A stretch of 39,977 nt of DNA. It comes from Bacilli bacterium. Lineage in GTDB: Bacteria > Bacillota_I > Bacilli_A > ML615J-28 > CAG-698. The stretch lies in contig JAQUYJ010000001.1 in assembly GCA_028691905.1 (NCBI GenBank), positions 1 to 39,977 of the forward strand. Reading direction: 5' to 3'. The notes beneath the pieces are model-generated. The model was not told where the DNA came from and made no database searches. It worked only from the letters and a program-made list of their open reading frames with translations. The position numbers and the translations under genes are program-made. Numbering within the stretch: the stretch's first letter is position 1; each line of letters begins with the position of its first letter. Below, piece after piece: positions 136 to 21,634 of this stretch.

Positions 136-1002
136 ATGAAAAAAAATATATTCAGAGATTTACTGGTAGAAAATCTAGAAGAAGCAACTGTTGTTTTTAT
201 GGGAATACCTTTTGATAAAGCAGTATCGTGTGGGCAGGGTGCTCGTTTTGCTCCCTTAAAATTGCGGGAATTATCAGCCTTTTTACCTCCGGTATCCTAT
301 CAGGGAAAAAAGCTTAACACAAAATTGTTTGATGGTGGTGATATTGAAAACTATCAAGCCAATCAAACCGATTCCAAAGTCACTTTTGCTTTTAAACAAA
401 ACAAATTTTGCTTTTTCGTTGGCGGAGATCACTCCGTTTCCATTGCCATGCAGAAAGCTTTTACTGAAAAAAACAGTGGAAAAAAGGTGGGAATTATTCA
501 TGTTGATGCCCATGCTGATTTGTGCGATATATACGATAACAATCGCTATTCTCATGCAAGTGTGAACAGACGGGCGATTGACAATGGGGTACAGGATGGG
601 GATATTGCTTATATCGGTATTCGGTCATGGGAAAAAGAAGAAGTAGAATATTACCAAAATCATCCTGAAGTTACATTAATTCCGATGCAGGAAATCCACC
701 ACAGTGGGTTACCTACCCAACTGGATAAACTGATTAATCAATTCAGACATCATGATGCAGTTTACCTATCGTTTGATATTGATGCAATTGATCCTGCCTA
801 TGCACCAGGAACAGGAACGCCGGAAGCAGCGGGGATGACTTCCTATCAGGCATTGGAATTGGTTCGTTCTTTACTGCTCCATCTTCCGATTCAAGCAATG
901 GATATCGTTGAAGTGGCTCCCCCCCTGGATCAAAATGATATCACATCCTGGCTTGCACTCAAGATGATGTATGAAGCATTTTCTGCTTTAGAAGAAAAAT
1001 AA
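136..1002 (+). CDS. speB: Arginase-family ureohydrolase, most likely agmatinase
   Basis: 288-aa ORF with RBS agaggtgg upstream. Mn-binding ureohydrolase motifs are present: [34 protein letters not shown]. Substrate (agmatine versus another guanidino compound) cannot be decided from sequence by eye. Confidence 0.8.
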
Positions 1003-1007
1003 ATTAA

Positions 1008-1044
1008 TCTGTCAAGCAAAAATACTTGACAGATGTTTTTTTTA
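1008..1044 (+). terminator. Rho-independent terminator after the ureohydrolase gene
   Basis: Stem ctgtcaag (1008-1015) pairs with cttgacag (1025-1032), followed by a T-run (1036-1043). Confidence 0.75.
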
Positions 1045-1054
1045 TAGGTATAAT
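1026..1054 (+). promoter_or_regulatory. Sigma-A promoter of rpsP-khpA
   Basis: TTGACA (1026-1031), exact 17-bp spacer, TATAAT (1049-1054). The -35 box lies in the 3' arm of the preceding terminator. Confidence 0.7.
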
Positions 1055-1087
1055 AATTCTAGTTCAGTTGAAGGAGGATTAATTGAT

Positions 1088-1357
1088 ATGGTTAAAATTA
1101 GATTACAACGATTTGGTGCCCATAAACGCCCATTCTATCGTATTGTTGCAACCGATGCCCGCAATCCCAGAGATGGTCGTTTTATCGAAATAGTTGGTAC
1201 TTACCACCCGTTGGATAAAGAACAACAACTAAAAATCGACGAAGAAAAAGCTTTAAAATGGCTTCAAGCTGGAGCACAACCAACCGATACGGTTAAATCA
1301 TTATTTACAAAAATGGGTATCAATGCGAAATTTACAAGTAAGAAACAAGGTGAATAA
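1088..1357 (+). CDS. rpsP: 30S ribosomal protein S16
   Basis: [20 protein letters not shown]... is a typical S16 N-terminus. RBS is gaaggagg. Confidence 0.97.
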
Positions 1358-1359
1358 CG

Positions 1360-1611
1360 GTGGCTGAATTGAATTATGAAAAATTCGTTAGCGACCTTAT
1401 CCGCCCAATCGTCATGTATCCGGAAGAAGTTCGGGTAAAAATATTTGCTGAAGACAATCAGGTTATTACCTTGCAGGTAATGGTAAATGAGAAAGATCTT
1501 GGTCGTGTCATCGGTAAAAAAGGGCGTGTTGCCAATGCCATTCGCACAATAGCTTTTGCTTGTGGAGCGAGAGAAGGCAAAAAAATAGAAATATCCATTG
1601 ACTCATTTTAA
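1360..1611 (+). CDS. khpA: KH-domain RNA-binding protein (YlqC/KhpA family)
   Basis: 83 aa with a GTG start 2 nt after the rpsP stop. KH GXXG loop VIGKKGRVANAIRT. Conserved position after rpsP. Confidence 0.9.
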   Translation: MAELNYEKFVSDLIRPIVMYPEEVRVKIFAEDNQVITLQVMVNEKDLGRVIGKKGRVANAIRTIAFACGAREGKKIEISIDSF

Positions 1612-1614
1612 AAA

Positions 1615-1639
1615 AAGATTAGGAAACTAGTCTTTTTTT
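1615..1639 (+). terminator. Rho-independent terminator after khpA
   Basis: Stem aagattag pairs with ctagtctt (one G-U pair), GAAA tetraloop, then a T-run. Confidence 0.7.
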
Positions 1640-1640
1640 G

Positions 1641-1669
1641 TTGACAAGATAAATAAAACAAAGTATAAT
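1641..1669 (+). promoter_or_regulatory. Sigma-A promoter of the ArsR-family regulator / P-type ATPase operon
   Basis: TTGACA (1641-1646), 17-bp spacer, TATAAT (1664-1669). Confidence 0.75.
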
Positions 1670-1670
1670 A

Positions 1671-1694
1671 ATATATGAGCGTTTGCTCATATAT
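1671..1694 (+). promoter_or_regulatory. Putative ArsR/SmtB-family operator (10-4-10 perfect inverted repeat)
   Basis: atatatgagc-gttt-gctcatatat starts 2 nt after the -10 box and covers the expected transcription start. It resembles the TGA..TCA-cored, AT-flanked palindromes bound by CzrA/SmtB-type repressors. Confidence 0.65.
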
Positions 1695-1706
1695 AGGAGA
1701 ATTCAA

Positions 1707-1991
1707 ATGAATAAACTAGATAATAGTGCATTATTGTTTAAAGCTTTGGGAGATCAAACCAGAATTAGAATTATTGAAGCAATAATGAATACAGAAAAAA
1801 ATGTAATGCAGATAGCCAATGAATTGAATATGACGCATTCAGCTATTTCTCATCAATTGCAATTATTAAAAGAAGTGAATATTGTCCGTTTTAGAAGAAA
1901 AGGGAAAGAAATATTTTATACGCTAAGTGATTCCCACATTAAGACAGTAGTCGAGCAGGTATTCACACATGCAATGGAATGTGAGGAATAA
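1707..1991 (+). CDS. ArsR/SmtB-family metal-sensing repressor, CzrA/SmtB-like (alpha-5 site)
   Basis: ATG at 1707 preceded by RBS aggaga; the ORF-track TTG at 1683 lies inside the operator. Winged-helix motif NMTHSAISHQLQLLK. The C-terminal DSH-x10-H-x2-E (DSHIKTVVEQVFTHAME) matches the alpha-5 Zn/Co sensing motif DxHx10Hx2E. No CadC-type CVC motif. Confidence 0.85.
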   Translation: MNKLDNSALLFKALGDQTRIRIIEAIMNTEKNVMQIANELNMTHSAISHQLQLLKEVNIVRFRRKGKEIFYTLSDSHIKTVVEQVFTHAMECEE

Positions 1992-1992
1992 A

Positions 1993-4350
1993 ATGAAAAA
2001 GAAATTCTTTATTAAAAATACAGAAAATCAAGCCGAATTGAAACGGGTTGAAGAAGAAATAAGCATTGCCTTTGATGAGGGTGATGTCATAATGGATTAT
2101 GAGGAAGAAGCGATAGAAGTTGATTGTCATGACAATCCGGACCGTTTTAATCAATTGCTGTTTATTGTCCGATCGATTAATCCAAAAATCAATCTTGTGG
2201 AAAAAGAAGATACAAAAAAATATCGTAAAGTATTGTTTTTGGATGGTTTGGATTGCGCAAACTGTGCCTTAAAAATAGAACGGATCGCAAAAAGATCCCT
2301 GAGTCATGAATTTATCAGTGTTGATTTTACTTCTGCACGATTTATAATCGAAACAAAAGATGAAAAAACACATCAAAATATTATTGATGAAGTAAGTAAA
2401 ATCACCTCAATGGTTGACCCTTCTGTGCAGGTTAAAACAAAATCAACAATTCGGACTACACCAAAAAGTTTGATTGATACCAAACCAAAACTGGATCTTA
2501 TTCTATTCATAATTGGCGTCGGTTTGTTTTTAACCGGGGTAATTATCCGTTTTGCTCTTCAATCTGTCGGAACCATTTTACCCGATTGGACAATCCTGTT
2601 AATGTATACAGTCGCTTATATTTTACTGGGAAAAGACGTTTTATATGGAGCATTTAAAAATATCATATCGGGTCGCTTTTTCGATGAAAAGTTTCTGATG
2701 ACACTTGCAACCAGTGTTTCTTTGGGAATCGGGTTTTATGAAGAGGCGGTATCCGTCATGATTTTCTACAAAATCGGTGAATTTTTCCAGGAATATGCGG
2801 TTAACAAATCCCGAAAATCCATTTCTTCTCTTTTGGATATCAAACCACCCCATGCCAATCTTTTGGTGAACAATGAAGTGGTTGAAGTTGACCCGGCTGA
2901 AATATGCGAAGGGGATATCATATATGTGAAAAGTGGTGAACGGGTACCTGTTGATGGGATTATCATTGAAGGAGAATCTTCCCTGGATGTTTCTGCACTT
3001 ACAGGAGAATCAAAATTGGTTGATGTAGGTGTTGGAAATGATATTATTTCCGGTTCAATCAATACCACTGGCGTTCTAAAAGTTCAGGTAGATAAAATAT
3101 ATGAAGACTCCATGGTTGCTCAAATTCTACACATGGTAGAAAACGCAAGCATGTTGAAATCCAAATCGGAAAAGTTGATTTCCAAATTGGCTAAATACTA
3201 TACTCCGATAATTGTTATATTTGCTTTATTTTTGGCTTTATCACCTATTTTGTTTCATTCGTGGAATTTTCAGGATTCAATATACAGTGCAACTATTTTT
3301 CTTGTTGCATCCTGCCCCTGTGCATTGGTTATTTCTGTTCCTTTAGGCTTTTTTGGAGGAATCGGTGGAGCCAGTAAACACGGGATATTAATCAAGGGCA
3401 GTAACTATCTGGAAGCTTTAGCTGATTTGGGTGGTATTGCTTTCGATAAAACAGGAACACTTACAAAAGGTCAGTTCACTGTGGGTGAAATAGTTGCCCA
3501 TACAGGCAGTAAGCATGATATATTGGAATTTGCTGCTTATTGTGAATTTACTTCCAGTCATCCGATCGCCCGTTCCATTATTACCGAATACGGGGAAGAT
3601 AATATTGATACTTCACGTATTCGTATTCATTCCAAAGGAATGAAAAATGGAACGAGAATCTATTTGGATGAAGAAGAAATAGCCATCGGTAATGCTGCTT
3701 TCATGCATAAAATCAAAGTAAAAGTACCGGAAATTAACAGCGATGATGTAATTGTTTATGTCGTGAAAAACCAGGAATACGTTGGTCACATTATCATGCA
3801 AGATGAAATCAGAACAGAAGCAAAAGCTGTTATCAAGCAACTGAAAGAACGTGGAATTAAAACTGCTATGTTTACTGGTGATAAAGAAGTAGTTGCCAGT
3901 GAAGTTGCTGAGTCTGTTGGGATTGATATGATTTATGCCGGCATGAGTCCAATCGACAAAGTGAAAAAACTTCGCCAAATGAAAAAAACGTTAAATAAGA
4001 AAAAGCAGGCATTTATAGGTGATGGTATCAATGATGCTCCTGTTTTAAGCAGTGCGGATGTCGGTATTGCCATGGGTGGATTGGGCAGTGATGCAGCGAT
4101 AAAAGTCGCTGATGTTGTCTTAATGGATGATGATCTGACTAAAATTCCCCTTGCCATTGATATTGCGAAAAAAACAAAACAAATTGTTTATCAGAATATT
4201 GCTTTTGCCCTTGTCGTAAAAATCATTGTATTGGCACTGGCTCCGGTTGGTATATCCCATTTATGGGAAGCCATTTTTGCTGATGTCGGGGTTTCGCTCC
4301 TGGCTATTCTTAATTCCCTGCGAGCTGCAAGAATAAACAAGCGCAATTGA
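1993..4350 (+). CDS. Heavy-metal P1B-2-type ATPase (Zn/Cd/Pb efflux class)
   Basis: ATG at 1993 is 1 nt after the regulator stop, with RBS gaggaa. HMA domain with CANC (nt 2254-2265). TGES, CPC (SCPCALVIS), DKTGTLT, HP and GDGINDAP motifs are present. TM7 N-x7-K (NIAFALVVK) and TM8 DxG-x7-N (DVGVSLLAILN) are characteristic of the Zn/Cd/Pb subgroup. An uncharacterised extension of about 75 aa precedes the HMA domain. Confidence 0.92.
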   Translation: MKKKFFIKNTENQAELKRVEEEISIAFDEGDVIMDYEEEAIEVDCHDNPDRFNQLLFIVRSINPKINLVEKEDTKKYRKVLFLDGLDCANCALKIERIAKRSLSHEFISVDFTSARFIIETKDEKTHQNIIDEVSKITSMVDPSVQVKTKSTIRTTPKSLIDTKPKLDLILFIIGVGLFLTGVIIRFALQSVGTILPDWTILLMYTVAYILLGKDVLYGAFKNIISGRFFDEKFLMTLATSVSLGIGFYEEAVSVMIFYKIGEFFQEYAVNKSRKSISSLLDIKPPHANLLVNNEVVEVDPAEICEGDIIYVKSGERVPVDGIIIEGESSLDVSALTGESKLVDVGVGNDIISGSINTTGVLKVQVDKIYEDSMVAQILHMVENASMLKSKSEKLISKLAKYYTPIIVIFALFLALSPILFHSWNFQDSIYSATIFLVASCPCALVISVPLGFFGGIGGASKHGILIKGSNYLEALADLGGIAFDKTGTLTKGQFTVGEIVAHTGSKHDILEFAAYCEFTSSHPIARSIITEYGEDNIDTSRIRIHSKGMKNGTRIYLDEEEIAIGNAAFMHKIKVKVPEINSDDVIVYVVKNQEYVGHIIMQDEIRTEAKAVIKQLKERGIKTAMFTGDKEVVASEVAESVGIDMIYAGMSPIDKVKKLRQMKKTLNKKKQAFIGDGINDAPVLSSADVGIAMGGLGSDAAIKVADVVLMDDDLTKIPLAIDIAKKTKQIVYQNIAFALVVKIIVLALAPVGISHLWEAIFADVGVSLLAILNSLRAARINKRN

Positions 4351-4366
4351 TGTGCTTGTTTTTTTC
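4336..4366 (+). terminator. Rho-independent terminator of the metal-efflux operon
   Basis: Stem aacaagcgc pairs with gtgcttgtt, 7-nt loop, then a T-run. It overlaps the last codons and stop of the ATPase. Confidence 0.7.
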
Positions 4367-4383
4367 ATTTGATATGGTATAAT
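4356..4383 (+). promoter_or_regulatory. Candidate extended -10 promoter of rimM-trmD
   Basis: tatggTATAAT (TG 4375-4376, -10 box 4378-4383) with a weak -35 ttgttt (4356-4361, 16-bp spacer). Confidence 0.55.
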
Positions 4384-4407
4384 GAAGAGGGTACAAAGAG
4401 GTGTAAC

Positions 4408-4890
4408 ATGTATTTGGTAGGTAAAATCATTGGAACGCACGGTATAAAAGGTGAATTGAAAATTCACGCGGAAACTAATTTTTCACGGTTTGAAATTGGT
4501 AATGTTTTACATATAAAAAAAGAAAATGAATATCAGGAATTAAAAGTAAAAACCCATCGTATGCACAAAAACAATCATCTGGTTAGTTTTGAAGGCTATA
4601 CGAATATTAATGAAGTACTGTCCTGGATTGGATTGAATCTGTTTACTACACATGATCCCGATGAATTGCAAATTGGTGAGTATTATTATGAAGATTTAAT
4701 CGGAAAAACGCTTCTTTCAACAAAAGGGGAAATACTGGGGAAGGTTATTGATATCAGAGAAGTACCACAGGGAATTATCCTGGAAGGAAAAAACGATAAA
4801 AAAACATTTCTAATTCCCTTTGTCGATGAATTTGTAAAAGAAATTACAACAGACAAAATCGTCATTGAAGTGATGGAAGGATTATTATGA
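4408..4890 (+). CDS. rimM: 16S rRNA processing protein RimM
   Basis: Start chosen at MYLVGKIIGTHGIKGELK (typical RimM N-terminus, RBS aagaggtg). PRC-barrel C-terminal half. Confidence 0.9.
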   Translation: MYLVGKIIGTHGIKGELKIHAETNFSRFEIGNVLHIKKENEYQELKVKTHRMHKNNHLVSFEGYTNINEVLSWIGLNLFTTHDPDELQIGEYYYEDLIGKTLLSTKGEILGKVIDIREVPQGIILEGKNDKKTFLIPFVDEFVKEITTDKIVIEVMEGLL

Positions 4891-6157: not shown

Positions 6158-6186
6158 AAGACATCACAGTGAATAGAGGTGATTTT

Positions 6187-7173
6187 ATGAATCAAGCCAA
6201 GATATATGATATAGCCGGTGCTGCAGGTGTAAGTCTAGCTACTGTATCCCGTGTTTTAAACCATCCCGAAAAAGTGAAAAAAGGAACAAGAGAAAAAGTA
6301 CTTCGAATTATAAAAGAAAAAGGATATAAACCCAACGCCAATGCAAGGGGACTTGCAAGCAGAAAATCAACTACAGTAGCGGTTGTCGTTCCGACGGTTC
6401 TTAGGGCATCCATTTCTGAAATGATTCAGGGAATTGCCGACAGTGCAAAAAAATACGGATATTCCATTCGTCTTTTCGTCAATGGTCAGCATCAGACCAG
6501 TACGGATGCATGGTCCGATGTGATAGCATCCAGTGTGGATGGTATTTTGTTCATGAATGACGAAATGGAAAATGAAACATACGAGTTAATTGAACATACA
6601 CCAGTCCCTGTTATTTTTATTAATGCACTGTCAAAAAGCACTAAAATCGGCAGTGTCGGCATTGATAATGAAGACTGCTCCTACCGTGTTACAAAGGAAA
6701 TGATTACCCGTGGATTTAAAGATATTCTTTTCATTACAACCGAGCATAAATACGCAGTCAATGATTTAAAAGAAAAAGGATATCGTCGGGCAATGGAAGA
6801 ATTTCGTTTGCTACCATCTGTTTTTAAAAGCAGTGGTGATTTAGCAATAAACGAAAAGCAGTTCAAGGAAATGTTGGACAGTAGAACACCGGAAGTTGTT
6901 TTTGCGGTTCGTGATTCGATGGCGATTTCATTTATGAATGTGGCCAGCAAACGTGGAATCAAAATACCGGCACAAATGCAGGTTGTTGGTTTCCAGAATA
7001 CAAGATATGCTGAACTGTCCAATCCGAAACTAAGTTGCGTGGAAACACCGATTTATGAAATTGGCAATGTCGCCATGGAAAAATTAACAGAATTGATGAA
7101 AAATGCGGAAGAAACAAAACCGACAAATGTGGTAGTAGACTATCGAATTATTTATCGCGAATCAACTAAATAA
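6187..7173 (+). CDS. ccpA: LacI-family regulator, probable catabolite control protein A
   Basis: ATG at 6187 with RBS agaggtga. HTH IYDIAGAAGVSLATVSRVLN. As I remember B. subtilis CcpA, several blocks resemble it (GLASRKSTTVAVVVP, VDGILFMN, GFQNTRYAEL...IYEIGNVAMEKLTELM, C-terminal RESTK) and the length is similar. The position near tyrS also matches B. subtilis. Orthology needs an alignment to confirm. Confidence 0.65.
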   Translation: MNQAKIYDIAGAAGVSLATVSRVLNHPEKVKKGTREKVLRIIKEKGYKPNANARGLASRKSTTVAVVVPTVLRASISEMIQGIADSAKKYGYSIRLFVNGQHQTSTDAWSDVIASSVDGILFMNDEMENETYELIEHTPVPVIFINALSKSTKIGSVGIDNEDCSYRVTKEMITRGFKDILFITTEHKYAVNDLKEKGYRRAMEEFRLLPSVFKSSGDLAINEKQFKEMLDSRTPEVVFAVRDSMAISFMNVASKRGIKIPAQMQVVGFQNTRYAELSNPKLSCVETPIYEIGNVAMEKLTELMKNAEETKPTNVVVDYRIIYRESTK

Positions 7174-9795: not shown

Positions 9796-9813
9796 GTGAA
9801 ACAATAATTATCA

Positions 9814-9827
9814 TGTAAGCGTTTTAG
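9814..9827. promoter_or_regulatory. cre-like / LacI-family operator half-palindrome (site A)
   Basis: tgtaagcgttttag matches TGWAANCGNTNWCA except at the last two positions. Its first 12 nt are the exact reverse complement of part of site B. Confidence 0.45.
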
Positions 9828-9865: not shown

Positions 9866-9879
9866 TGAAAACGCTTACA
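9866..9879. promoter_or_regulatory. cre box (site B), full match to TGWAANCGNTNWCA
   Basis: tgaaaacgcttaca lies 14 bp upstream of the -35 box of the opp-like operon promoter. Confidence 0.6.
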
Positions 9880-9893
9880 TTGAAAAAAACATG

Positions 9894-9922
9894 TTGACAT
9901 TTTCATAGAAAGTTTATATAAT
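9894..9922 (+). promoter_or_regulatory. Consensus sigma-A promoter of the opp-like operon
   Basis: TTGACA (9894-9899), exact 17-bp spacer, TATAAT (9917-9922). Confidence 0.75.
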
Positions 9923-10004
9923 ATATATAATCAAGATATATACAATTATTGTATCTATATTTGATGATTCATCTTTTTTATAATCAAAAAACGGGAGGAA
10001 AAAA

Positions 10005-11960
10005 ATGAAAAAGTTTTTGAGTGTAATGTTAGTATTTGCTCTTGCTTTTGCTGTTGTTGGTTGTAAACCGAAAGAAGTGGATGTTGAAACAACATTAGTT
10101 GTTGGAACAACTACTGAACCAGGCGTTAATATGTTTGGTACTTTCTGGGGAAACAATGCTTCTAATGCAGACGTAAGAGAATTGACTTTTGGTTATGGAA
10201 CTGTGTCATTCACCAAAGAAGGTAAATATGCAGTAGATCCTACATCAGTCAAAAGCCTAGTAGAAACAGAGAATACTGATGGAAGTAAAACATATACAAT
10301 CGAAATTAACACAGGATTGGTTTGGAATGATGGCGAACCAGTTACTGCGAAAGATTATGTGTTTGCTGTTCTATTAAGTATTAATCCGATTTTCTCTAGT
10401 GTAGTTGGAAAAAGCTTATCAACTGATGGAACCATCGTAGGTAGCAAGGATTTCAATGATCCAGATGTGAATACCGATGGTAAGGCTGAACTTCCTGGTT
10501 TGGATTTGATTAATGATTACAAGTTCTCCGTAACTATTGGGGCTGAAAATTTCCCATATTACTACGAATTCTTGTATTATTCTTTCACTCCATATCCACT
10601 ACATGTTTTAGCTCCAGAAGCTGATGTAGTTCAAGGAACAGAAGGCGCAAAAATGAGTGGCGTCTTCACTTCTGCTGTATTAGAAGATACAGTTGATGAT
10701 GGCGAAACCGGATATCGTTATGATATCAGCGTTACTTGCGGACCTTATGATTTATTTGATTTTGATGTTGAAACTTCAACAGCAACATTAAAGAGAAACC
10801 CATTATTTAAGGGCGATTATACTGGACAAGTTCCTGATATCGACAACGTTGTAATTAAATACGTTCCAAACTCTGTATTGTTACAATCCTTGGTTAATGG
10901 TGAAATTGACTTAATTGAATCTGTATCTGGTGGAGCAAACATCCAGGATGGATTATCTGAAGTTGCGTATGGAAAAATTAAATTTACAACATTCCCACGT
11001 AATGGTTACGGATTAATCGCATTCCACTGTGATGAACCTGCAGGTCCTACTTCTCAATTAGAAGTTCGTCAAGCTATTGCTTATTTAATTAATAGAGATT
11101 TATTCTTACAGACTTATACATTAGGATATGGCGTATTACCAAACGGTGAATATGGACTATCTCAATGGATGGTTGCTGCTTCTTCCAATGAAGACGGTGT
11201 TGTAATGGGTAAAAATGCTGATGGAGAACTAGTAGCACTAGAATCTTACAGTTACAATCCAACTAAAGCCGTTCAATTATTAGAAGCTGCTGGCTGGACT
11301 AAGAATGCTACAGGTGGAGCTTATGTTCAAGCTGAAGGCGCTGTTCGTTACAACGCTGATGGCGAAAAACTTGAGATTCCTTGGGCTAACACTCCAGATA
11401 ACCCAGTTTCTGAATTAATTCGTACTCAATTATTGCCAAATGCTGCTGCAGTAGGTATGAGCTTTATTGATACTACTATGGACTTCAATACTATGCTTTA
11501 TACTCACTATTATGGAGCATATGGTGATGGTTATGGATTACCAACCCAAGATGATGATGGCAACTGGTTAGTTCCTGAATACGAAGCTGAAGAAACAGAT
11601 GCTCGTGAATATCATATGGTTAACTTAGGAACTGGATTCAATCCTGGTCTATATGAACCTTACTATGATGTTTCTGTTGAGTACTGGGGCTGGGATGGCG
11701 GAGCCAATATCAGCTATCTATACGATGCAGATTTATTAGAAGCTGCGAAAGATATGAAATTTGCCGCTGATGATGATGAATATCTAGATGCATGGCAAAG
11801 ATATCAATATCGTTTCAATCAATTATTACCAAGCTTACCATTGTATTCCGATATGTATCATGCATTCTTTACAACTAAGCTAAGTGATTATGAAGTTACA
11901 CCTGAATGGACTATGACTTCAGCAATTCTTTATGCTAAGATGGAAGAAGTAGCTGAATAA
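10005..11960 (+). CDS. oppA: ABC transporter substrate-binding lipoprotein, family 5 (Opp/Dpp type)
   Basis: Lipoprotein signal MKKFLSVMLVFALAFAVVGC (lipobox VVGC). 651 aa with SBP_bac_5-like regions. Codon usage looks highly expressed. RBS gggagga. Confidence 0.85.
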   Translation: MKKFLSVMLVFALAFAVVGCKPKEVDVETTLVVGTTTEPGVNMFGTFWGNNASNADVRELTFGYGTVSFTKEGKYAVDPTSVKSLVETENTDGSKTYTIEINTGLVWNDGEPVTAKDYVFAVLLSINPIFSSVVGKSLSTDGTIVGSKDFNDPDVNTDGKAELPGLDLINDYKFSVTIGAENFPYYYEFLYYSFTPYPLHVLAPEADVVQGTEGAKMSGVFTSAVLEDTVDDGETGYRYDISVTCGPYDLFDFDVETSTATLKRNPLFKGDYTGQVPDIDNVVIKYVPNSVLLQSLVNGEIDLIESVSGGANIQDGLSEVAYGKIKFTTFPRNGYGLIAFHCDEPAGPTSQLEVRQAIAYLINRDLFLQTYTLGYGVLPNGEYGLSQWMVAASSNEDGVVMGKNADGELVALESYSYNPTKAVQLLEAAGWTKNATGGAYVQAEGAVRYNADGEKLEIPWANTPDNPVSELIRTQLLPNAAAVGMSFIDTTMDFNTMLYTHYYGAYGDGYGLPTQDDDGNWLVPEYEAEETDAREYHMVNLGTGFNPGLYEPYYDVSVEYWGWDGGANISYLYDADLLEAAKDMKFAADDDEYLDAWQRYQYRFNQLLPSLPLYSDMYHAFFTTKLSDYEVTPEWTMTSAILYAKMEEVAE

Positions 11961-12004
11961 TAAGCTAGTTAACGCAATCGTAATTAAAAAGTAAATAAAA
12001 TGAA

Positions 12005-12037
12005 GGAGATTGGTGTTAGCCAATCTCCCTAATTTTT
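12005..12037 (+). terminator. Intra-operon hairpin (partial terminator / mRNA stabiliser) after the binding-protein gene
   Basis: ggagattgg-tgttag-ccaatctcc followed by ctaattttt. This is the usual position for differential expression of the binding protein relative to the membrane components. Confidence 0.55.
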
Positions 12038-12051
12038 AGAAGGAGATAAAA

Positions 12052-13056
12052 ATGTCAAGATATATCATAAAAAGAATTGTATACATATTTTTTGTCGCAA
12101 TATTGATTACTGTTATCTTGTTCTTATTGTATAAATCCATTCCCGGGGGAGATACTGCCCGTGTTTTTGCCTATGTTGATCAAAACTTAAAAAGAACTAA
12201 CCCAGCATTATATGTCATAAAAATGCAAGAAGCTATCGAGGAATTGGGAATCAATAAACCAGATATCGTTCAATACTTTTTGTGGGTGAAAAGTGTCTTA
12301 AAAGGTAATCTTGGATATACATTATATACAAACGAACCTGTACTTCAATATATTAAAGCGCCTTTAGGGAATACAGTAAAATTAAATTTAGTTGTAATGT
12401 TTTTTGTTTTCGCAATAACATTTCCATTAGGTATCAAATCAGCAGTTAAAAAGTATTCAACATTTGATAACAGTGTTCAGGTGTTCACTATTGTTGGGAT
12501 GTCCTTACCAAGTTTCTTCATTGCCTTGATTTCCATTTTAATATTTTCTGCAACGTTAGGATGGCTGGCAAGTAACGGAATGAATTCCGGTATTTTAGCC
12601 CGAAGCAATATGACTGGTTTTGAGCGGCTCTTGGATAGCTTGAAATACATGATAATGCCGGTATTTGTTTTAACGGCATCATCACTGGCTGGAATTACCA
12701 GGTATGTTCGAGGGGCAATGATCGATATTCTTTCCCAGGATTACATCAGAACAGCACGTGCGAAAGGACTAAAAGAAAAAGTAGTCATTTATTCCCATGC
12801 TTTTCGTAATGCAATGATTCCTGTAATCACCATACTGGCCGGTTGGTTTCTTGGTATATTTGGTGGTGCCACCATTACAGAAACAATCTTCGGTTGGAAC
12901 GGAATGGGAAAAGTAATGTTTGATGCATTAATGCAGGGACCGGACTATGCTGTTATTATGGCAATGAACCTGTTTTATACTGTACTTGGTTTAGTTGGTA
13001 ATTTGATACTTGATGTATTGTATACTGTAGTAGATCCAAGGGTTAAGTTGGGGTAG
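12052..13056 (+). CDS. oppB: ABC transporter permease, OppB/DppB type
   Basis: 334 aa, multi-TM, EAA loop IRTARAKGLKEKVVIYSHAFRNA. RBS aaggaga. Confidence 0.9.
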   Translation: MSRYIIKRIVYIFFVAILITVILFLLYKSIPGGDTARVFAYVDQNLKRTNPALYVIKMQEAIEELGINKPDIVQYFLWVKSVLKGNLGYTLYTNEPVLQYIKAPLGNTVKLNLVVMFFVFAITFPLGIKSAVKKYSTFDNSVQVFTIVGMSLPSFFIALISILIFSATLGWLASNGMNSGILARSNMTGFERLLDSLKYMIMPVFVLTASSLAGITRYVRGAMIDILSQDYIRTARAKGLKEKVVIYSHAFRNAMIPVITILAGWFLGIFGGATITETIFGWNGMGKVMFDALMQGPDYAVIMAMNLFYTVLGLVGNLILDVLYTVVDPRVKLG

Positions 13057-13060
13057 AGAT

Positions 13061-15031
13061 ATGAAGAAAAATAACTTTATTGAGAATGTTAGAGATTTTT
13101 TCATTATTATTGGAAGAGCACTTAAAAATGCTTTTGTCCGTGCCTTTTTTGGTACACATAAAGAACTTTCCATGTTGGAAGAAGAAGCAGTAGAAAGTCC
13201 GCTAAAGGGAGCTACTCGGAAATTTTTTAAAAACAAATTAGCCATTATCGGCTTAATTGTGTTTCTCGCAATATTTGCGTTTTGTTTTGTTGGAAGTATT
13301 TTTATTAAGGATAAAGAGTATCGTTATTTAAATATTACACAAAGAAATATCAGCCCGGGCTATCAAATGATGGCTGTTCCCAAGGGCTTGCAGGAAAACG
13401 GAATACTGGATATAGCTGTTGGTTCAAAATACAGTGCCGGTATTGATTTAGACAACAATGTTTATCTGTGGGGACAGGACATTAACAACTTAGTAGAAGA
13501 CTTTCCCCAAGGTCAAGCTGCACCTTCTGATTTAAAAGTTGGAAGAGATGCGATTGCCGGTTTGAAAGCAAAACGTGTCTGGGCCGGTCAAACCCATTTT
13601 ATGTTTGAAAAAATGGACGGAACACTTGAAGGAATCGGAATACGAACAGATATCGTTTCATTTGGATTAACAGCAGTACCAACTGCCGTCTTGTCCGGAG
13701 CTGTATTGGTTAATATAGCACAGCAGATTCAATTGGATGGCGGTGTCCTGGACATGGTTTTATTTAATCAAATAAACCTCGTCATTACCAAAAAGAACCG
13801 CGTGTTTATGTGGGGAAATACGGTTGGAAGAACGACTAATTTTTCTGCAGTCAATGCTTTAAAACCAGTTCAAGCAGGATTTTCGCGCAGTAATATTACG
13901 TTTCTTTATGAAGATGGCACTGTTGGTGTTATCGGTGAAGGAAGTTTGAAAAATACCCTTCCCGCCGGACTGAGTGGCATTGTTCAGATTGTAACTACAG
14001 CGGGAAGTGCATTGGCATTAAAAGCTGATGGGACATTTATTACCTGGGGTGATAATTTGTCCAAGGAATTTGAATATGATGACTCCATCCAGGGCCGTAT
14101 TAAGAAATTATCTAAATCAGCTTTGGGCTCAGATAACTATCAGCATTTTACAGCTGTACTGGATGATGGATCAGTATATTCATGGGGAAGCAATCAATAC
14201 AATGCTTCCACTCCACCTAAAAAATTAGCAGAAGGAACCGAAGCAGCAAATGTATTTTCTGGATATTTCCAAAATTATGTCATTGACGAAGAAGGAAAAT
14301 TGCTGGGTACCTATGGATTAAAAGGACACTTGTTTGGAACAGATGATTATGGTCGGGATTTGTTGGACCGAGTAATGGGTGGCGGAAGAATTTCCTTAAC
14401 AATCGGATTGATTGCTGTCATCATTTCCACAACAATCGGAATTATTATTGGTGGTACTGCCGGATTTTACGGTGGTAGAGTAGATATATTATTAATGCGT
14501 TTTAGTGAAGTGGTTGGATCAATTCCATTCTTGCCGATTGCGATGACTTTCTCGGCAATTTTAAGCAGAACCAATCCTGATATGACAACGACGGATCGAA
14601 TGGTTATGATTATGATTATTCTCGGTGTCTTGAGTTGGACCGGATTGGCTTATCTTATTCGAGCTACCATTTTGTCAGAAAGAGAAAAGGAATTTGTTAC
14701 CGCTGCGAAAGCACTTGGTGTAAAAAACCGAGCAATTATATTCAGACATATTATTCCTAATGTATTAACTATTATTATTATCAGTGCAACTCTTGGTTAT
14801 GCATCTTCCTTATTGACTGAAGCTGGTCTTTCATTCCTGGGATTTGGTGTTCAGTTACCTGCTCCTTCTTGGGGGAACTTATTAACGGGTGCTCAGGAAA
14901 TGACAGTTATTAAAGTCTATTGGTGGCGTTGGGTATTCCCATCTGTCTTATTGTGTCTTGCAACCATAAGTATTAACTTAATCGGTGATGCAATAAGAGA
15001 TGCTGTGGATCCACGTTCCAGTGAAAGATAG
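13061..15031 (+). CDS. oppC: ABC transporter permease, OppC/DppC type, with a large RCC1-like repeat insertion after TM1
   Basis: 656 aa. TM1 is at about residues 59-82. The conserved OppC_N motif LFGTDDYGRDLLDRV is at about 424-438. EAA loop VTAAKALGVKNRAIIFRHIIPN. Residues of about 100-420 are extra and carry seven WG/IG/YG-terminated repeats. Confidence 0.88.
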   Translation: MKKNNFIENVRDFFIIIGRALKNAFVRAFFGTHKELSMLEEEAVESPLKGATRKFFKNKLAIIGLIVFLAIFAFCFVGSIFIKDKEYRYLNITQRNISPGYQMMAVPKGLQENGILDIAVGSKYSAGIDLDNNVYLWGQDINNLVEDFPQGQAAPSDLKVGRDAIAGLKAKRVWAGQTHFMFEKMDGTLEGIGIRTDIVSFGLTAVPTAVLSGAVLVNIAQQIQLDGGVLDMVLFNQINLVITKKNRVFMWGNTVGRTTNFSAVNALKPVQAGFSRSNITFLYEDGTVGVIGEGSLKNTLPAGLSGIVQIVTTAGSALALKADGTFITWGDNLSKEFEYDDSIQGRIKKLSKSALGSDNYQHFTAVLDDGSVYSWGSNQYNASTPPKKLAEGTEAANVFSGYFQNYVIDEEGKLLGTYGLKGHLFGTDDYGRDLLDRVMGGGRISLTIGLIAVIISTTIGIIIGGTAGFYGGRVDILLMRFSEVVGSIPFLPIAMTFSAILSRTNPDMTTTDRMVMIMIILGVLSWTGLAYLIRATILSEREKEFVTAAKALGVKNRAIIFRHIIPNVLTIIIISATLGYASSLLTEAGLSFLGFGVQLPAPSWGNLLTGAQEMTVIKVYWWRWVFPSVLLCLATISINLIGDAIRDAVDPRSSER

Positions 15032-15042
15032 GAGGAAACACG

Positions 15043-16038
15043 ATGGCACTATTAGAAGTTAAAGATCTCCACACTTTCTTTACAACCAAAAGAGGTATTG
15101 TAAAGGCAGTTAACGGAATGACATATGAATTGGAAGAAGGAAAAACATTGGGTATTGTTGGGGAAAGTGGTTCTGGAAAGAGCGTTTCCGCGATGAGTAT
15201 TCTTCGTTTACTGGATGGAAATGGTTATATTGACAGTGGAACTGTCCTTCTGGACGGTGTGGATCTGACAAAAGTTGATGAAGCAGCGCTGCAATATATC
15301 CGTGGCAATAAAATATCAGTCATTTTCCAAGAGCCCATGACCTCTTTAAATCCGGTATTTACTGTAGAAAAGCAAATTGGTGAAGTATTCCAAATTCACC
15401 AAGGAATGACAAAAAAAGAATCCTACGCGAAAAGTGTTGACTTATTGCGTGAAGTAGGGATTCCCAATCCGGAAAAAGTGGCAAAAAACTATCCCCATCA
15501 ATTAAGTGGCGGGATGAGACAACGGGTTATGATTGCGATGGCACTGGCCTGTCGTCCCCGAATTTTAATTGCGGATGAACCTACTACTGCTTTGGATGTA
15601 ACCATCCAAGCTCAGATTTTAAAATTAATGAATGACTTAAAAAAAGAATCCAATATGGCAATTATCTTTATTACTCATGATTTGGGTGTTATAAATGAAA
15701 TGGCTGATGATGTTATCGTTATGTATTGTGGTGAGATTGTAGAAAAGGCATCCGCAAAAGTGATTTTTGCGGAATCATCCGATTACACTCATCCTTATAC
15801 AGAAGGATTGATGACCTCTATTCCACGTTTAAACAAAGGAAAAGAGCGATTGGATGCCATCCCAGGTGCAGTTCCCCATCCACTTGATTTACCGGTAGGA
15901 TGTAAATTTGCACCCCGATGCAAATATGCAACAGCAAAATGCCAGGAAAAAGAACCGGATCTGCTATTGGTAGAAGAAGGACACAGCGTAAGATGTTTCT
16001 ATCCGAAAAAAGGGGTGAGAAGTAATGGCGAAAAGTAA
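15043..16038 (+). CDS. oppD: ABC transporter ATP-binding protein, OppD/DppD type
   Basis: Walker A GESGSGKS, signature LSGGMRQR, Walker [14 protein letters not shown]-terminal Opp-type Cys motif [18 protein letters not shown] aggagga. Confidence 0.93.
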
Positions 16039-18175
16039 AACACTGACCAATACTCCTTTAATTAAAATTGTAGGAGTAAAAAAGCACTTTCCACTGAAAA
16101 AAACGCGCTTGTTTCAACGAGAAGTTTTGACTGTAAAGGCAAATGATGGAATTGATTTAACTATAAACAAGGGAGAAACACTTGGTTTAGTAGGTGAAAG
16201 TGGTTGTGGGAAATCAACACTTGGCCGCGTATTACTGCAACTTTATCCTGTTACATCGGGGAAAATCATTTATTATGGTTATAATGTTGATCAATATGCA
16301 CCGAAATATTTTACGAGAGAAATAAGACGATTGCATTTGTCTAAGGAAATGCGGGAAAGACTGGAAGCAAAAATTCCCCTTCTTGAAGAAAAAATTAAAG
16401 AGCTGCAAGCCGATGAAGTTGAAAAGGCAAAACGAAATGAATTAGCTGCGAAAATAAAAGAATTGGAAAAAGCAAATCAGAATTTATGGGACGAATGCCA
16501 TGGTAAGCATCAGGCTTTCATCGTAAGTGAAGATATTCATGCTATCCGTCGTTTTCCAAAGTTGGATTCATATATTGCCAAGGCTGAAGCTAAAATTACG
16601 AAATTACAACAAAAAATTGACGATTATGAGGGTACGCGGGAAAGTGCAAAACAGTATCGTAATCCGAAAGCAGAAGCGGAAGTTGTAGAATTAAAAAAAC
16701 AAATCGAAGTTGCTGAATTAAGCTGCATTGCTGATTTAAATAAAAAATTAGCTATCGCAGAACGTAAAGCAAATTATAAATTATATGAATTGGATTTGAA
16801 TATTTTAAATACTCAGAATAAAATCAACTTAATCAAAAACGAAATGATGATGCACGCGCAGCGAATTAAATCCAGTTTAGATAAACCGATTGAATTAAGT
16901 TCTGATGTTCTGAAAAGCTTGGTTGAATATAAAGAAAAATATCATGCAAATAAGCAGTTAATCAAGCAATATCAAGCAGTAATCGACTTTAAAAAACAAA
17001 AAGATGAAATTCAAAAGATTCAAAACAGAATTGATAAAATTTTGGATAATGCTGCAAACGCAACCGGCGGTTATGTATTAAGCAATCAATCCTTAAAAGT
17101 ATCACAAAGCTTGTTTCAACGTGTTGCAAACTTACGTAAAATTGTCGATGAAGAAGAGAAAATTCAAATTTGCAAAGTAGCAAAGTTTAGAACTGAAAAA
17201 GAGCTGGAAGCAAAAAAGGATAAACTAACCAATTTGCAAATTAACAAATTGCAGAAAAAAATTGTGAAATACGAAGAAAACCTGGCTTTATCTGACCAAA
17301 AAATTCAAGAATTTAACCGTTTGGTTGACGAAGCCAATGTTGAATTAAGAAAACTAAAAGAAGAAGTCAAACAAAATGAATTATTTGATGAATTGGAAGC
17401 AAAAAGAGAAAAAGGAATTGATTTATCCCGTTTAACAAACGAGGAAATGCGTATTTTACGTAAACATCTCCAATTAATTTTCCAGGATCCTTATTCCTCA
17501 TTGAATCCAAGAATGACAGTTGGTCAGATTATTTATGAAGGTATAAGAGCGCATCATTTGGATGAACTGACTTATGACGACAAACAAGAACAAATTATCA
17601 AAGTAATGGAGAAATGCGGATTGGCACCATATATGCTTCATCGTTATCCTCATCAGTTTTCTGGTGGACAACGTCAACGAATCGGTATCGCTCGTGCCCT
17701 TGCTGTAAATCCGACTTTTGTCGTCTGCGATGAAGCTGTCAGTGCCCTTGACGTATCTATTCAATCACAGATAATCAACTTGCTCGAAGATTTAAGAGAC
17801 AATGAAAATCTAACCTACTTGTTTATTTCTCACGATTTAAGTGTTATTAAACATATTAGTGACCGAATCGGCGTTATGTATTTAGGTAATATGGTAGAAT
17901 TGGGTGATTCTGATGCAGTTTACGAAAGACCACTTCACCCTTATACCAAAGCTTTAATTTCATCTATTCCAACTACAGATCAGGAGCAAAGGAAACGAAT
18001 TTTATTAGAAGGAGATATTCCTTCCAATGTATTCCCACCTAGTGGATGTAAATTCAGAACCAGATGTCCATTGGCCCGTAAAGCATGTGCAGAAAAAGTA
18101 CCTGAGTTTAGAGAAGTAGAACCGGGAAGATTCGTTGCCTGTCATTTCTATGAAGAAACAGAAAATCTTAGATAG
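16025..18175 (+). CDS. oppF: ABC transporter ATP-binding protein, OppF/DppF type, interrupted by a coiled-coil insertion of about 375 aa
   Basis: 716 aa, with a 14-nt overlap with oppD. Walker A GESGCGKST (about residues 57-65). Q-loop LIFQDPYSSLNPR begins only at about residue 484. Signature FSGGQRQR, Walker B FVVCDEAVSALD, C-terminal GCKFRTRCPLARKAC. Residues of about 91-466 are Lys/Glu/Leu/Ile/Gln-rich and heptad-like. Confidence 0.9.
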   Translation: MAKSKTLTNTPLIKIVGVKKHFPLKKTRLFQREVLTVKANDGIDLTINKGETLGLVGESGCGKSTLGRVLLQLYPVTSGKIIYYGYNVDQYAPKYFTREIRRLHLSKEMRERLEAKIPLLEEKIKELQADEVEKAKRNELAAKIKELEKANQNLWDECHGKHQAFIVSEDIHAIRRFPKLDSYIAKAEAKITKLQQKIDDYEGTRESAKQYRNPKAEAEVVELKKQIEVAELSCIADLNKKLAIAERKANYKLYELDLNILNTQNKINLIKNEMMMHAQRIKSSLDKPIELSSDVLKSLVEYKEKYHANKQLIKQYQAVIDFKKQKDEIQKIQNRIDKILDNAANATGGYVLSNQSLKVSQSLFQRVANLRKIVDEEEKIQICKVAKFRTEKELEAKKDKLTNLQINKLQKKIVKYEENLALSDQKIQEFNRLVDEANVELRKLKEEVKQNELFDELEAKREKGIDLSRLTNEEMRILRKHLQLIFQDPYSSLNPRMTVGQIIYEGIRAHHLDELTYDDKQEQIIKVMEKCGLAPYMLHRYPHQFSGGQRQRIGIARALAVNPTFVVCDEAVSALDVSIQSQIINLLEDLRDNENLTYLFISHDLSVIKHISDRIGVMYLGNMVELGDSDAVYERPLHPYTKALISSIPTTDQEQRKRILLEGDIPSNVFPPSGCKFRTRCPLARKACAEKVPEFREVEPGRFVACHFYEETENLR

Positions 18176-18356
18176 GTTAAATGTTACTCCGGAAAAAGAG
18201 CGATTAGCAAAAGAAAATCTAAAAAATAATCCGTTGGAAAAGAATGATATGAAAGCGATAATGATTGCTGCATTTCTGGCTTTTGTTTTACCTACAATAC
18301 TTGTTCTGGGAGTAATAGCATTTATTATTTGGTTAATTATCATTATGATTGCATAA
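18150..18356 (+). CDS. Small hypothetical membrane protein (single C-terminal TM)
   Basis: The ORF fills the gap between the oppF stop (18175) and the operon terminator (18361). It has a charged N-terminal part and the hydrophobic stretch AIMIAAFLAFVLPTILVLGVIAFIIWLIIIMIA. No strong RBS is visible, and the start is uncertain (18135, 18150 or 18249). Confidence 0.4.
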   Translation: MKKQKILDRLNVTPEKERLAKENLKNNPLEKNDMKAIMIAAFLAFVLPTILVLGVIAFIIWLIIIMIA

Positions 18357-18360
18357 ATAA

Positions 18361-18390
18361 AACAAGACCTAGTTTAGGTCTTGTTTATTA
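18361..18390 (+). terminator. Rho-independent terminator of the opp-like operon
   Basis: aacaagacct-agttt-aggtcttgtt followed by a T-rich tail. Confidence 0.75.
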
Positions 18391-21118: not shown

Positions 21119-21634
21119 ATGAATAAACAGAATGTATATGTAGCTTTTGATGGGAAAAATGATATTAAAGAATTTGCCAATTTTGAAGAATGGGAAAAAA
21201 CTGAAAATTATCCCTTTCATTTCATTAACGGAATGGAAGTTGCCCTTCGATTGGATAAAGAAAGCGATGAAGTGTTAAAGAAAAAATTGGGAGAGTTAAT
21301 CGATTCCTGTGCAATTTTTGTTGTATTGGTTACAAAAACAACAAAAAGTTTCCGTCGTTTTGTAAAGTGGCAAGTCGAATATGCCATTGAAAAGGGAATG
21401 CCAATCATCGTTTCCAATACGAATTTGATTCGTTCGGTCGACTATGACCGCTGCCCGATGAAATTAAAAAAAGCTTTATCCTTGCATATCGCCAATAATC
21501 AGGAAATCGTATCCTATGCTCTGCTGAATTGGCCTGCCAGTCATCAAGATCACCTTCAGAATGAGCGAATACAAACATTTCGATATGAAAAGGAACTATA
21601 TGATTTTTATCATATAAAAACATCACCATTTTAA
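21119..21634 (+). CDS. TIR-like domain protein (DUF1863 / MTH538 / ThsB-like family)
   Basis: 171 aa, strong RBS aaggaga, 10 nt after the nadK stop. The pattern VYVAFDGKND...(acidic/aromatic region)...SCAIFVVLVTKTTKSFRRFVKWQVEYAIEKGMPIIV fits the flavodoxin-like TIR fold of DUF1863 proteins. Assigned by eye only. Confidence 0.6.
   Translation: MNKQNVYVAFDGKNDIKEFANFEEWEKTENYPFHFINGMEVALRLDKESDEVLKKKLGELIDSCAIFVVLVTKTTKSFRRFVKWQVEYAIEKGMPIIVSNTNLIRSVDYDRCPMKLKKALSLHIANNQEIVSYALLNWPASHQDHLQNERIQTFRYEKELYDFYHIKTSPF

Follow-up and report, generated by a model that had tools for sequence, protein, structure and literature searches.

A stretch of 39,977 nucleotides (nt) from a Bacilli bacterium (contig JAQUYJ010000001.1 of assembly GCA_028691905.1), analysed here as a whole and referred to as the window, carries a six-gene operon for an oligopeptide permease (Opp)-type ATP-binding cassette (ABC) importer with three additional parts: a β-propeller inserted in one permease, a long helical arm inserted in one ATPase, and a small membrane protein. 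All six genes lie on the forward strand. The first encodes an oversized lipoprotein of substrate-binding protein (SBP) family 5 (651 amino acids, aa; positions 10005-11960). It is followed by the genes for an OppB-type permease (334 aa; 12052-13056), an OppC-type permease containing the propeller (656 aa; 13061-15031), a canonical OppD ATPase (331 aa; 15043-16038), an OppF ATPase containing the arm and keeping all its catalytic motifs intact (716 aa; 16025-18175), and a tail-anchored protein with a single membrane-spanning segment (68 aa; 18150-18356). A first-pass annotation, made from the DNA letters, had described a five-plus-one operon whose accessory parts lie on either side of the membrane. 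This description was borne out by the list of open reading frames (ORFs), which reproduced the coordinates and lengths of all six, by Pfam, which confirmed the domains, and by structural models.

The core of the system is that of the Opp/Dpp family. The SBP possesses a signal peptide, a lipobox (VVGC) and a strong Pfam match to SBP_bac_5 (131.9 bits against a cut-off of 32.4, E = 3.9e-38); its best solved relative is a chain labelled 'OppA' (9p48_A, E = 4.5e-28), and it is ~100 aa larger than its counterparts in canonical Opp/Dpp importers. Both permeases contain BPD_transp_1, accompanied by BPD_transp_1_N in OppB and by OppC_N in OppC, and both ATPases combine ABC_tran with the oligo_HPY extension. 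Walker A, Q-loop, signature, Walker B and H-loop can be read in the sequences of OppD and OppF, and the 47 aa between Walker A and Q-loop of OppD are in keeping with all its relatives. With canonical core parts throughout and every catalytic motif retained in OppD and OppF, the locus encodes a complete ABC importer of the Opp/Dpp (peptide/nickel, PepT-type) family, catalytically competent by its sequence, and function as a binding-protein-dependent importer is expected. None of the six proteins reached an NCBIfam equivalog cut-off. The substrates would most likely be oligopeptides, for which the OppA label of the best solved SBP relative and the peptidase M3, M1 and M29 genes found as occasional neighbours of related systems provide weak hints. 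Within their last ~40 residues, OppD and OppF also share a four-cysteine pattern, GCKF..RC......C...(n)...C, which does not vary in the OppF alignments and which we take to be the Fe-S cluster motif reported for Opp-type ATPases.

The first addition interrupts OppC at residues ~100-425 (13358-14335). In Pfam, OppC_N covers residues 46-83, RCC1_2 is detected with 56 bits against a cut-off of 22, and the permease domain follows only at 460-653. An AlphaFold2 (AF2) model built with 27 homologues, with a mean predicted local distance difference test (pLDDT) of 84, consists of a first transmembrane helix (TM1, residues 59-81), seven four-stranded blades (~100-425), a second transmembrane helix (TM2, 434-470) and the usual five-helix permease core. 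In Foldseek searches, the membrane core matched E. coli OppC (8z21_B, TMt 0.72) as well as DppC and M. tuberculosis OppC, and the ectodomain matched BLIP-II (TMt 0.79) and also the RCC1-like domains of UVR8 and HERC2. BLIP-II was also retrieved by phmmer with the OppC sequence. Strand pattern, Foldseek and phmmer thus identify a seven-bladed RCC1-like β-propeller. It has invariant positions across phyla, is modelled with a pLDDT of ~90 and is extracytoplasmic, as OppC-type subunits expose their TM1-TM2 loop on the outside of the cell. Three OppC relatives from a near clade (P0013-P0015) are even longer, with 821-899 aa; the longest, P0015 (899 aa), on the same contig as the OppF protein P0131, contains ~240 further residues inside the propeller, including a helical stretch, which suggests that this outside module is still expanding.

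Other ABC importers provide a possible role for such a domain. The P2 loop of MalF is known to act in the docking and retention of its binding protein. In an AlphaFold-Multimer model of the pneumococcal Ami permease, the TM1-TM2 loop of AmiD contacts lobe 2 of the binding protein, and the extracellular domains of AmiC have been proposed to clamp the loaded binding protein (PMC11192437). Because the TM1-TM2 loop contacts the binding protein in Opp, Dpp and Ami complexes, both solved and modelled, because the propeller always occurs together with an oversized SBP, and because BLIP-II, its nearest structural relative, is a tight protein binder, we propose by analogy that the propeller probably provides the large lipoprotein with an additional platform for docking or retention.

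The second addition lies on the opposite face of the membrane, in OppF. The motifs GESGCGKST, FQDP, FSGGQRQR, VVCDEAVSALD and ISHD can all be read directly in this protein. Nevertheless, its ABC_tran match falls into two parts, the first with Walker A around residue 60 and the second from residue 468 onwards. The distance from Walker A to Q-loop is 421 aa, compared with 42-48 aa in ordinary OppF proteins and 155-249 aa in the other propeller-containing systems described below, and the inserted segment accounts for ~375 aa (16292-17410). AF2 models it as long helices with pLDDT values of 80-96, and its hydrophobic residues follow a 3.5-residue periodicity well above that of shuffled sequences (z = 4.1). 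The first-pass annotation had called this segment a coiled coil; the long helices and the heptad-like periodicity are there, and it is better described as a coiled-coil-like helical arm. Self-comparison of OppF revealed no internal repeat. An SMC/Rad50-like nature was considered and rejected, as the insertion precedes the Q-loop (FQDP) and the SMC_N model reaches only 21.4 bits against a cut-off of 40.

The arm is bounded by the conserved motifs YYGR...AP.Y and F..YE...D.GIDLSRLT..EMR.LR.DLQIIFQDP, and a GG[FL] element in its middle is conserved as well; the helices between these conserved points vary. Arm length goes from 0 to ~110-205 aa across related systems and reaches ~375 aa in the window. 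This very long form is restricted to the window's close clade, in which the total length of OppF is fixed at 714-720 aa and the sequence of the insert is poorly conserved. The lengthening from ~110-205 to ~375 aa is the only clearly local elaboration of this lineage. Because length varies from 0 to 375 aa and some lineages dispense with the arm altogether, it would act as a spacer, regulatory or protein-contact arm, not as a catalytic element.

The third addition is the small gene that overlaps the end of oppF. Its ORF (18135-18356) encodes 73 aa if translated from a TTG at 18135 or 68 aa from an ATG at 18150, the latter start being favoured by the public annotation and by the family alignment. 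The ~36 N-terminal residues are charged (net +4) and precede a single C-terminal TM helix, from which the protein is predicted to be tail-anchored with a cytoplasmic N-terminus. Neither Pfam nor NCBIfam gave any match apart from a chance hit to FlhA. Its homologues across phyla nonetheless share an M.F.KK..R-like N-terminal start, a TM helix containing a proline and the juxtamembrane motif [LM]EK[GKN]D..AM.I[SA]A. A family hidden Markov model (HMM) matches the window protein with 72.6 bits (E = 1.2e-20; the window ORF was among the sequences used to build it), and profile searches retrieved 273 clusters from a word-indexed database and, from an exhaustive one, 710 representatives at 50% identity. 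These proteins, 50-130 aa long, are without exception annotated as 'hypothetical' and lack a Pfam model. When we looked up the genes surrounding three of them, each was located directly after an enlarged OppF gene in a propeller-containing operon, and two of the three loci were new (the other, L089, being the L024 contig); one of the operons adjoins the S10 ribosomal operon. Small membrane subunits accompany other transport systems, such as KdpF for Kdp and AcrZ for AcrB. By analogy with them, this protein of ~65 aa, translationally coupled to OppF, is probably a sixth, membrane-embedded subunit, and we consider it a candidate new accessory subunit.

The arrangement of the genes fits a single transcript. 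The intervals between them are, in order, +91, +4, +11, -14 and -26 or -41 nt (for the ATG and TTG starts of the last gene), so that from oppC onwards each gene either overlaps its predecessor or follows it after 4 or 11 nt. Upstream, the first-pass annotation had pointed out a consensus promoter (9894-9922, forward strand), which we confirmed as a sigma-70-type promoter with a 12/12 match to TTGACA-17 nt-TATAAT; the window contains three such perfect promoters against 0.02 expected by chance, the other two being located at 1026-1054 and 1641-1669, also on the forward strand. The operon terminator was likewise confirmed, as a terminal hairpin at 18360-18386 (-15.1 kcal/mol, z = -5.2) readable as a terminator on both strands. 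A further hairpin followed by a T-run occupies the gap between the SBP gene and oppB (12005-12028, forward strand; -17.5 kcal/mol, z = -4.3). A hairpin after the SBP gene is the usual arrangement in systems that make more binding protein than translocator, and this one is probably a partial terminator or messenger RNA stabiliser that would yield an excess of SBP.

Some potential regulatory sites are found near the promoter. The sequence TGAAAACGCTTACA at 9866-9879 is a perfect match to the consensus TGWAANCGNTNWCA of the catabolite-responsive element (cre), the operator of CcpA, and is located 15 nt upstream of the -35 box; the cre-like site (9866-9880) has a perfect 13-nt inverted partner 42 nt further upstream, at 9813-9825. 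A gene for a LacI-family regulator (6169-7173), which adjoins tyrS, could encode the cognate CcpA-like protein. Together, the candidate cre site and the LacI-family gene suggest catabolite control of the opp operon. A candidate repressor operator is found in the 5' leader, where a near-perfect palindrome (AAGATATATACAAT/ATTGTATCTATATT, 9933-9961) immediately follows the -10 box. Rfam searches found no riboswitch, T-box or other leader RNA around the operon.

To see how these features are distributed, we searched for OppC homologues, scanned the species genomes of GTDB, called ORFs in all the loci retrieved and assigned them by comparison with the window proteins; the closest relatives of the window, absent from the GTDB scan matches listed, were recovered by exact-protein look-ups. 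RCC1-bearing OppC homologues made up the top 47 clusters of the protein search, coming from Bacilli metagenome-assembled genomes (MAGs), Oliverpabstia, Sedimentibacter and Treponema. In Sedimentibacter sp. zth1 and Treponema, the same six genes are found in the same order, with an enlarged OppF and an ORF of 62-65 aa overlapping its end. The GTDB scan added at least ~36 loci with this gene cassette, in Roseburia, Agathobacter, Sellimonas, Ruminococcus, Gemmiger, Oscillospiraceae, Tissierellaceae, Anaerococcus, Scatosoma, Erysipelotrichaceae, Sphaerochaeta and Clostridium sp. Cult1, which brings the total to at least ~40 species-level genomes. Culturable carriers include Sellimonas intestinalis BR72, Sedimentibacter sp. 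zth1 and Clostridium sp. Cult1. The cassette hence ranges over Lachnospiraceae, Oscillospiraceae, Tissierellaceae, Erysipelotrichaceae, Sphaerochaeta, Treponema and the Bacilli lineage of the window, in unrelated gene neighbourhoods.

The three additions travel together. An OppF insert at the same site was present in 37 of the 41 assessable loci with a propeller OppC, and the small protein in 38 of 41; none of the 27 OppF proteins encoded in ordinary Opp-type operons of the same data set carried the insert. OppD is always canonical in the propeller loci (47-51 aa between Walker A and Q-loop), and the SBP is always large (597-810 aa). The comparison of relatives that the first-pass annotation had called for thus shows that propeller, helical segment and small ORF are correlated, not sporadic, and because of this co-occurrence we treat them as one cassette. 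The small gene is missing only from three Scatosoma loci (L021, L023 and L027), and the small protein is the most persistent of the three hallmarks. The pattern is one of a single gain followed by occasional loss in single lineages. An 87-aa TM ORF after OppF in an Acholeplasmatales locus (L059, 8937-13369) has a weak match to the small-protein HMM (E = 5e-4); this locus and a Mollicutes one discussed below (L040) may be reduced or ancestral forms. Sedimentibacter sp. zth1 carries two complete cassettes in tandem (L001, 5093-17848). In two other loci (L009 and L020), two SBP genes precede one translocator, a hint that several binding proteins may share one propeller permease.

The position of the cassette in the window is shared with Bacillus. 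It is flanked by tyrS and trpS (reverse strand) on one side and by spx and genes for CYTH, RelA_SpoT and NAD kinase proteins on the other. The order trpS (reverse strand), oppABCDF, spx occurs in two Bacillus loci (L053 and L056), in line with the first-pass annotation, and relatives with 61-63% OppC identity keep the window's neighbourhood. The same annotation held that the operon was not a horizontally acquired novelty, in agreement with its unremarkable GC content and the lack of any sign of recent acquisition. It went further in reading the locus as an ancestral housekeeping Opp of Bacilli that gained propeller, coiled coil and small ORF in place, and that might signal across the membrane or be tethered to a cytoplasmic structure. 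Shared position and native-looking composition favour this view, and an outside domain and an inside arm on the same transporter would be compatible with signalling. The sequences do not bear it out. OppB of the window is 31% identical to the Bacillus OppB at the trpS-spx position and 38-51% identical to OppB of cassettes in Clostridia and Spirochaetes; for OppD the values are 51% and 59-74%, respectively. In a simple neighbour-joining tree of these two proteins, the window belongs to a single clade made up of all propeller systems and L040, and Bacillus Opp branches far outside it. Hence, the system is located where the Bacillus subtilis-type Opp (Spo0K) is found but does not group with it in sequence. 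Moreover, the full six-gene set exists in Clostridia and Spirochaetes in unrelated contexts, and no recurrent kinase, regulator or other partner was detected among 111 flanking ORFs. An acquisition of the modules in place, with a role in signalling or tethering, is for these reasons unlikely.

Instead, because the OppB and OppD proteins of the window are closer to those of cassettes and fall inside the cassette clade, the modules appear to have come with the cassette lineage. The Bacilli-type members (the window, L028 and L040) branch near the base of this clade, so that an origin of the cassette within the Bacillota is possible. Two histories could explain its position: either the trpS-spx slot was refilled by replacement, or one ancestor that already occupied it gave rise, in a very deep divergence, to both Bacillus Opp and the cassette. 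The cassette would have been a long resident of this slot, where the OppF arm would have lengthened. Further along the window, between the genes for NAD kinase and clpP, there is an ORF for a ThsB-like TIR-domain protein (171 aa, 21119-21634; Pfam ThsB_TIR, E = 2.4e-10) that has no ThsA partner in its vicinity. The two flanking genes are adjacent in two relatives (L084 and L087), and this ORF looks like a small lineage-specific insertion of defence type.

We therefore favour the interpretation that the operon belongs to a conserved six-gene subfamily of Opp/Dpp-type importers, characterized by an OppC propeller, an OppF arm and a small membrane protein. We assign to it a probability of about 60%, with the roles proposed above for each module as its more conjectural part. 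A search for a family model, a name or a paper dealing with the OppC propeller, the OppF arm or the small protein found none, although the literature covered was mostly outside subscription journals. Several observations weigh against this interpretation. The modules are not strictly interdependent: four propeller loci lack the arm (L004 and L031, which are sisters, and L021 and L023 of Scatosoma), and L040, from a Mollicutes MAG (543-4778) inside the cassette clade, keeps the small protein next to a plain OppC and a plain OppF. The tree was built from two proteins by simple neighbour joining. The ATPase core of OppF was poorly modelled by AF2, probably owing to a shallow alignment, and in the Foldseek search of the PDB only this core found matches, the arm having none. 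The contact between propeller and SBP is proposed from analogy. As for the substrate, the evidence is indirect: characterised OppA proteins are only distant relatives of the SBP, and the nickel-type and opine-type NCBIfam models score almost as high as the peptide ones, all of them below cut-off.

These last points leave some room for a non-peptide cargo (cell-wall fragments, glycans or metal chelates, for example), with the propeller as a second substrate-capture or polymer-binding domain and not as a dock for the SBP. The permease-model scores, all below cut-off, are 246 bits for Opp4B and, close to it, 229 and 185 bits for the nickel-type models Opp2B and NikB, and the distance of the SBP from characterised OppA proteins points the same way. 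Some loci adjoin GH2 or sugar ABC genes, and Opp-family SBPs of Thermotoga are known to be able to bind sugars. Yet glycoside hydrolases are not recurrent among the 111 flanking ORFs, oligopeptidase M3 being the only mildly recurrent catabolic neighbour, the best solved relative of the SBP is labelled OppA, and housekeeping genes surround the operon in the window's clade. We judge non-peptide transport to be about as improbable as the acquisition of the modules in place.

A more speculative extension of the six-gene reading is that all six subunits make up a 'sensing' importer. In such a device, propeller and SBP would form a capture or receptor complex outside, and arm and small protein a gating or output module inside, so that a cytoplasmic partner would control uptake or be informed of it. 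We hold this to be quite improbable, but if true it would give type I ABC importers a new architecture for communicating across the membrane, one common in gut Clostridia. At the other extreme, the extra parts could be tolerated insertions without specific function, and the small ORF a by-product of the 3' end of oppF, as the poor conservation and widely variable length of the arm and the loss of arm and small ORF in some lineages might suggest, but this is very improbable in view of the invariant positions and confident model of the propeller, the conserved boundary motifs and GG[FL] element of the arm, the fixed length of OppF in the close clade, and a small-protein motif kept across phyla in a family of 710 representatives.

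The conserved six-gene subfamily matters in several respects. Opp-type importers are a main route for peptide nutrition and peptide signalling in Firmicutes and serve as structural models for type I ABC importers, and this subfamily departs from their canonical five-part plan in three ways at once. A propeller built into a permease offers a clean test of how extracytoplasmic domains assist in docking the binding protein, and an arm of variable length in one of two ATPases is an example of built-in asymmetry. In addition, many members come from human and animal gut Clostridia, in an environment where peptide uptake shapes community ecology.

Several components of this system have parallels elsewhere. 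The OppC ectodomain shares the seven-bladed RCC1-repeat fold with BLIP-II, a secreted bacterial propeller of RCC1 type that binds proteins tightly, and with the RCC1-like propellers of UVR8 and HERC2 (RLD domain). Unlike them, it is located in a transporter loop instead of forming a free protein, its identity to them is ~20% or less, and it has no β-lactamase context. SMC/Rad50 ABC ATPases are, like OppF, interrupted by a long helical, coiled-coil-like segment, but their coiled coil follows the Q-loop whereas the OppF insertion precedes it, and the rest of the window protein is a plain OppF.

Closer comparisons can be made with other importers, since extracytoplasmic permease inserts (AmiC, MalF P2) and over-long Mollicute OppD and OppF proteins, like the ordinary Opp/Dpp core itself, are already known. 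Mollicute Opp systems, from a lineage within or near the Bacilli, have ATPases much longer than 330 aa (NCBIfam MMSYN1_0167, 561 positions; MMSYN1_0168, 649), and the window OppF aligns to both models on either side of its extra length. However, its scores are far below their cut-offs (295 against 800 and 236 against 740), both ATPases are long in the Mollicute systems, and their OppC model has 307 positions and no propeller. Membership of the Mollicute type (MMSYN1_0165 to 0168) was rejected on the scores of all four subunits: 113.6 against 350 for OppB, 138.5 against 370 for OppC, 349 against 740 for OppD and the already mentioned 295 against 800 for OppF. In pneumococcal Ami, AmiC has, as in the window, a large extracytoplasmic domain in a permease loop beside the SBP docking site, and the P2 domain of MalF occupies a similar place. 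These inserts belong to an OppB-type or MalF subunit and have another fold, whereas that of the window is an RCC1-type propeller in an OppC-type subunit, so the likeness is one of analogy and not of homology. Finally, the canonical Opp/Dpp importers (E. coli OppBCDF, 8z21, and DppBCDF, 8z1v; M. tuberculosis OppABCD, 8j5q) have the same family-5 SBP, the same two BPD_transp_1 permeases and the same two ATPases with an oligo_HPY extension including the four-cysteine motif, and their structures match the membrane and ATPase cores of the window system. To this common plan, the window adds a propeller of ~325 aa in OppC, an arm of ~375 aa in OppF, a sixth small protein and a larger SBP.

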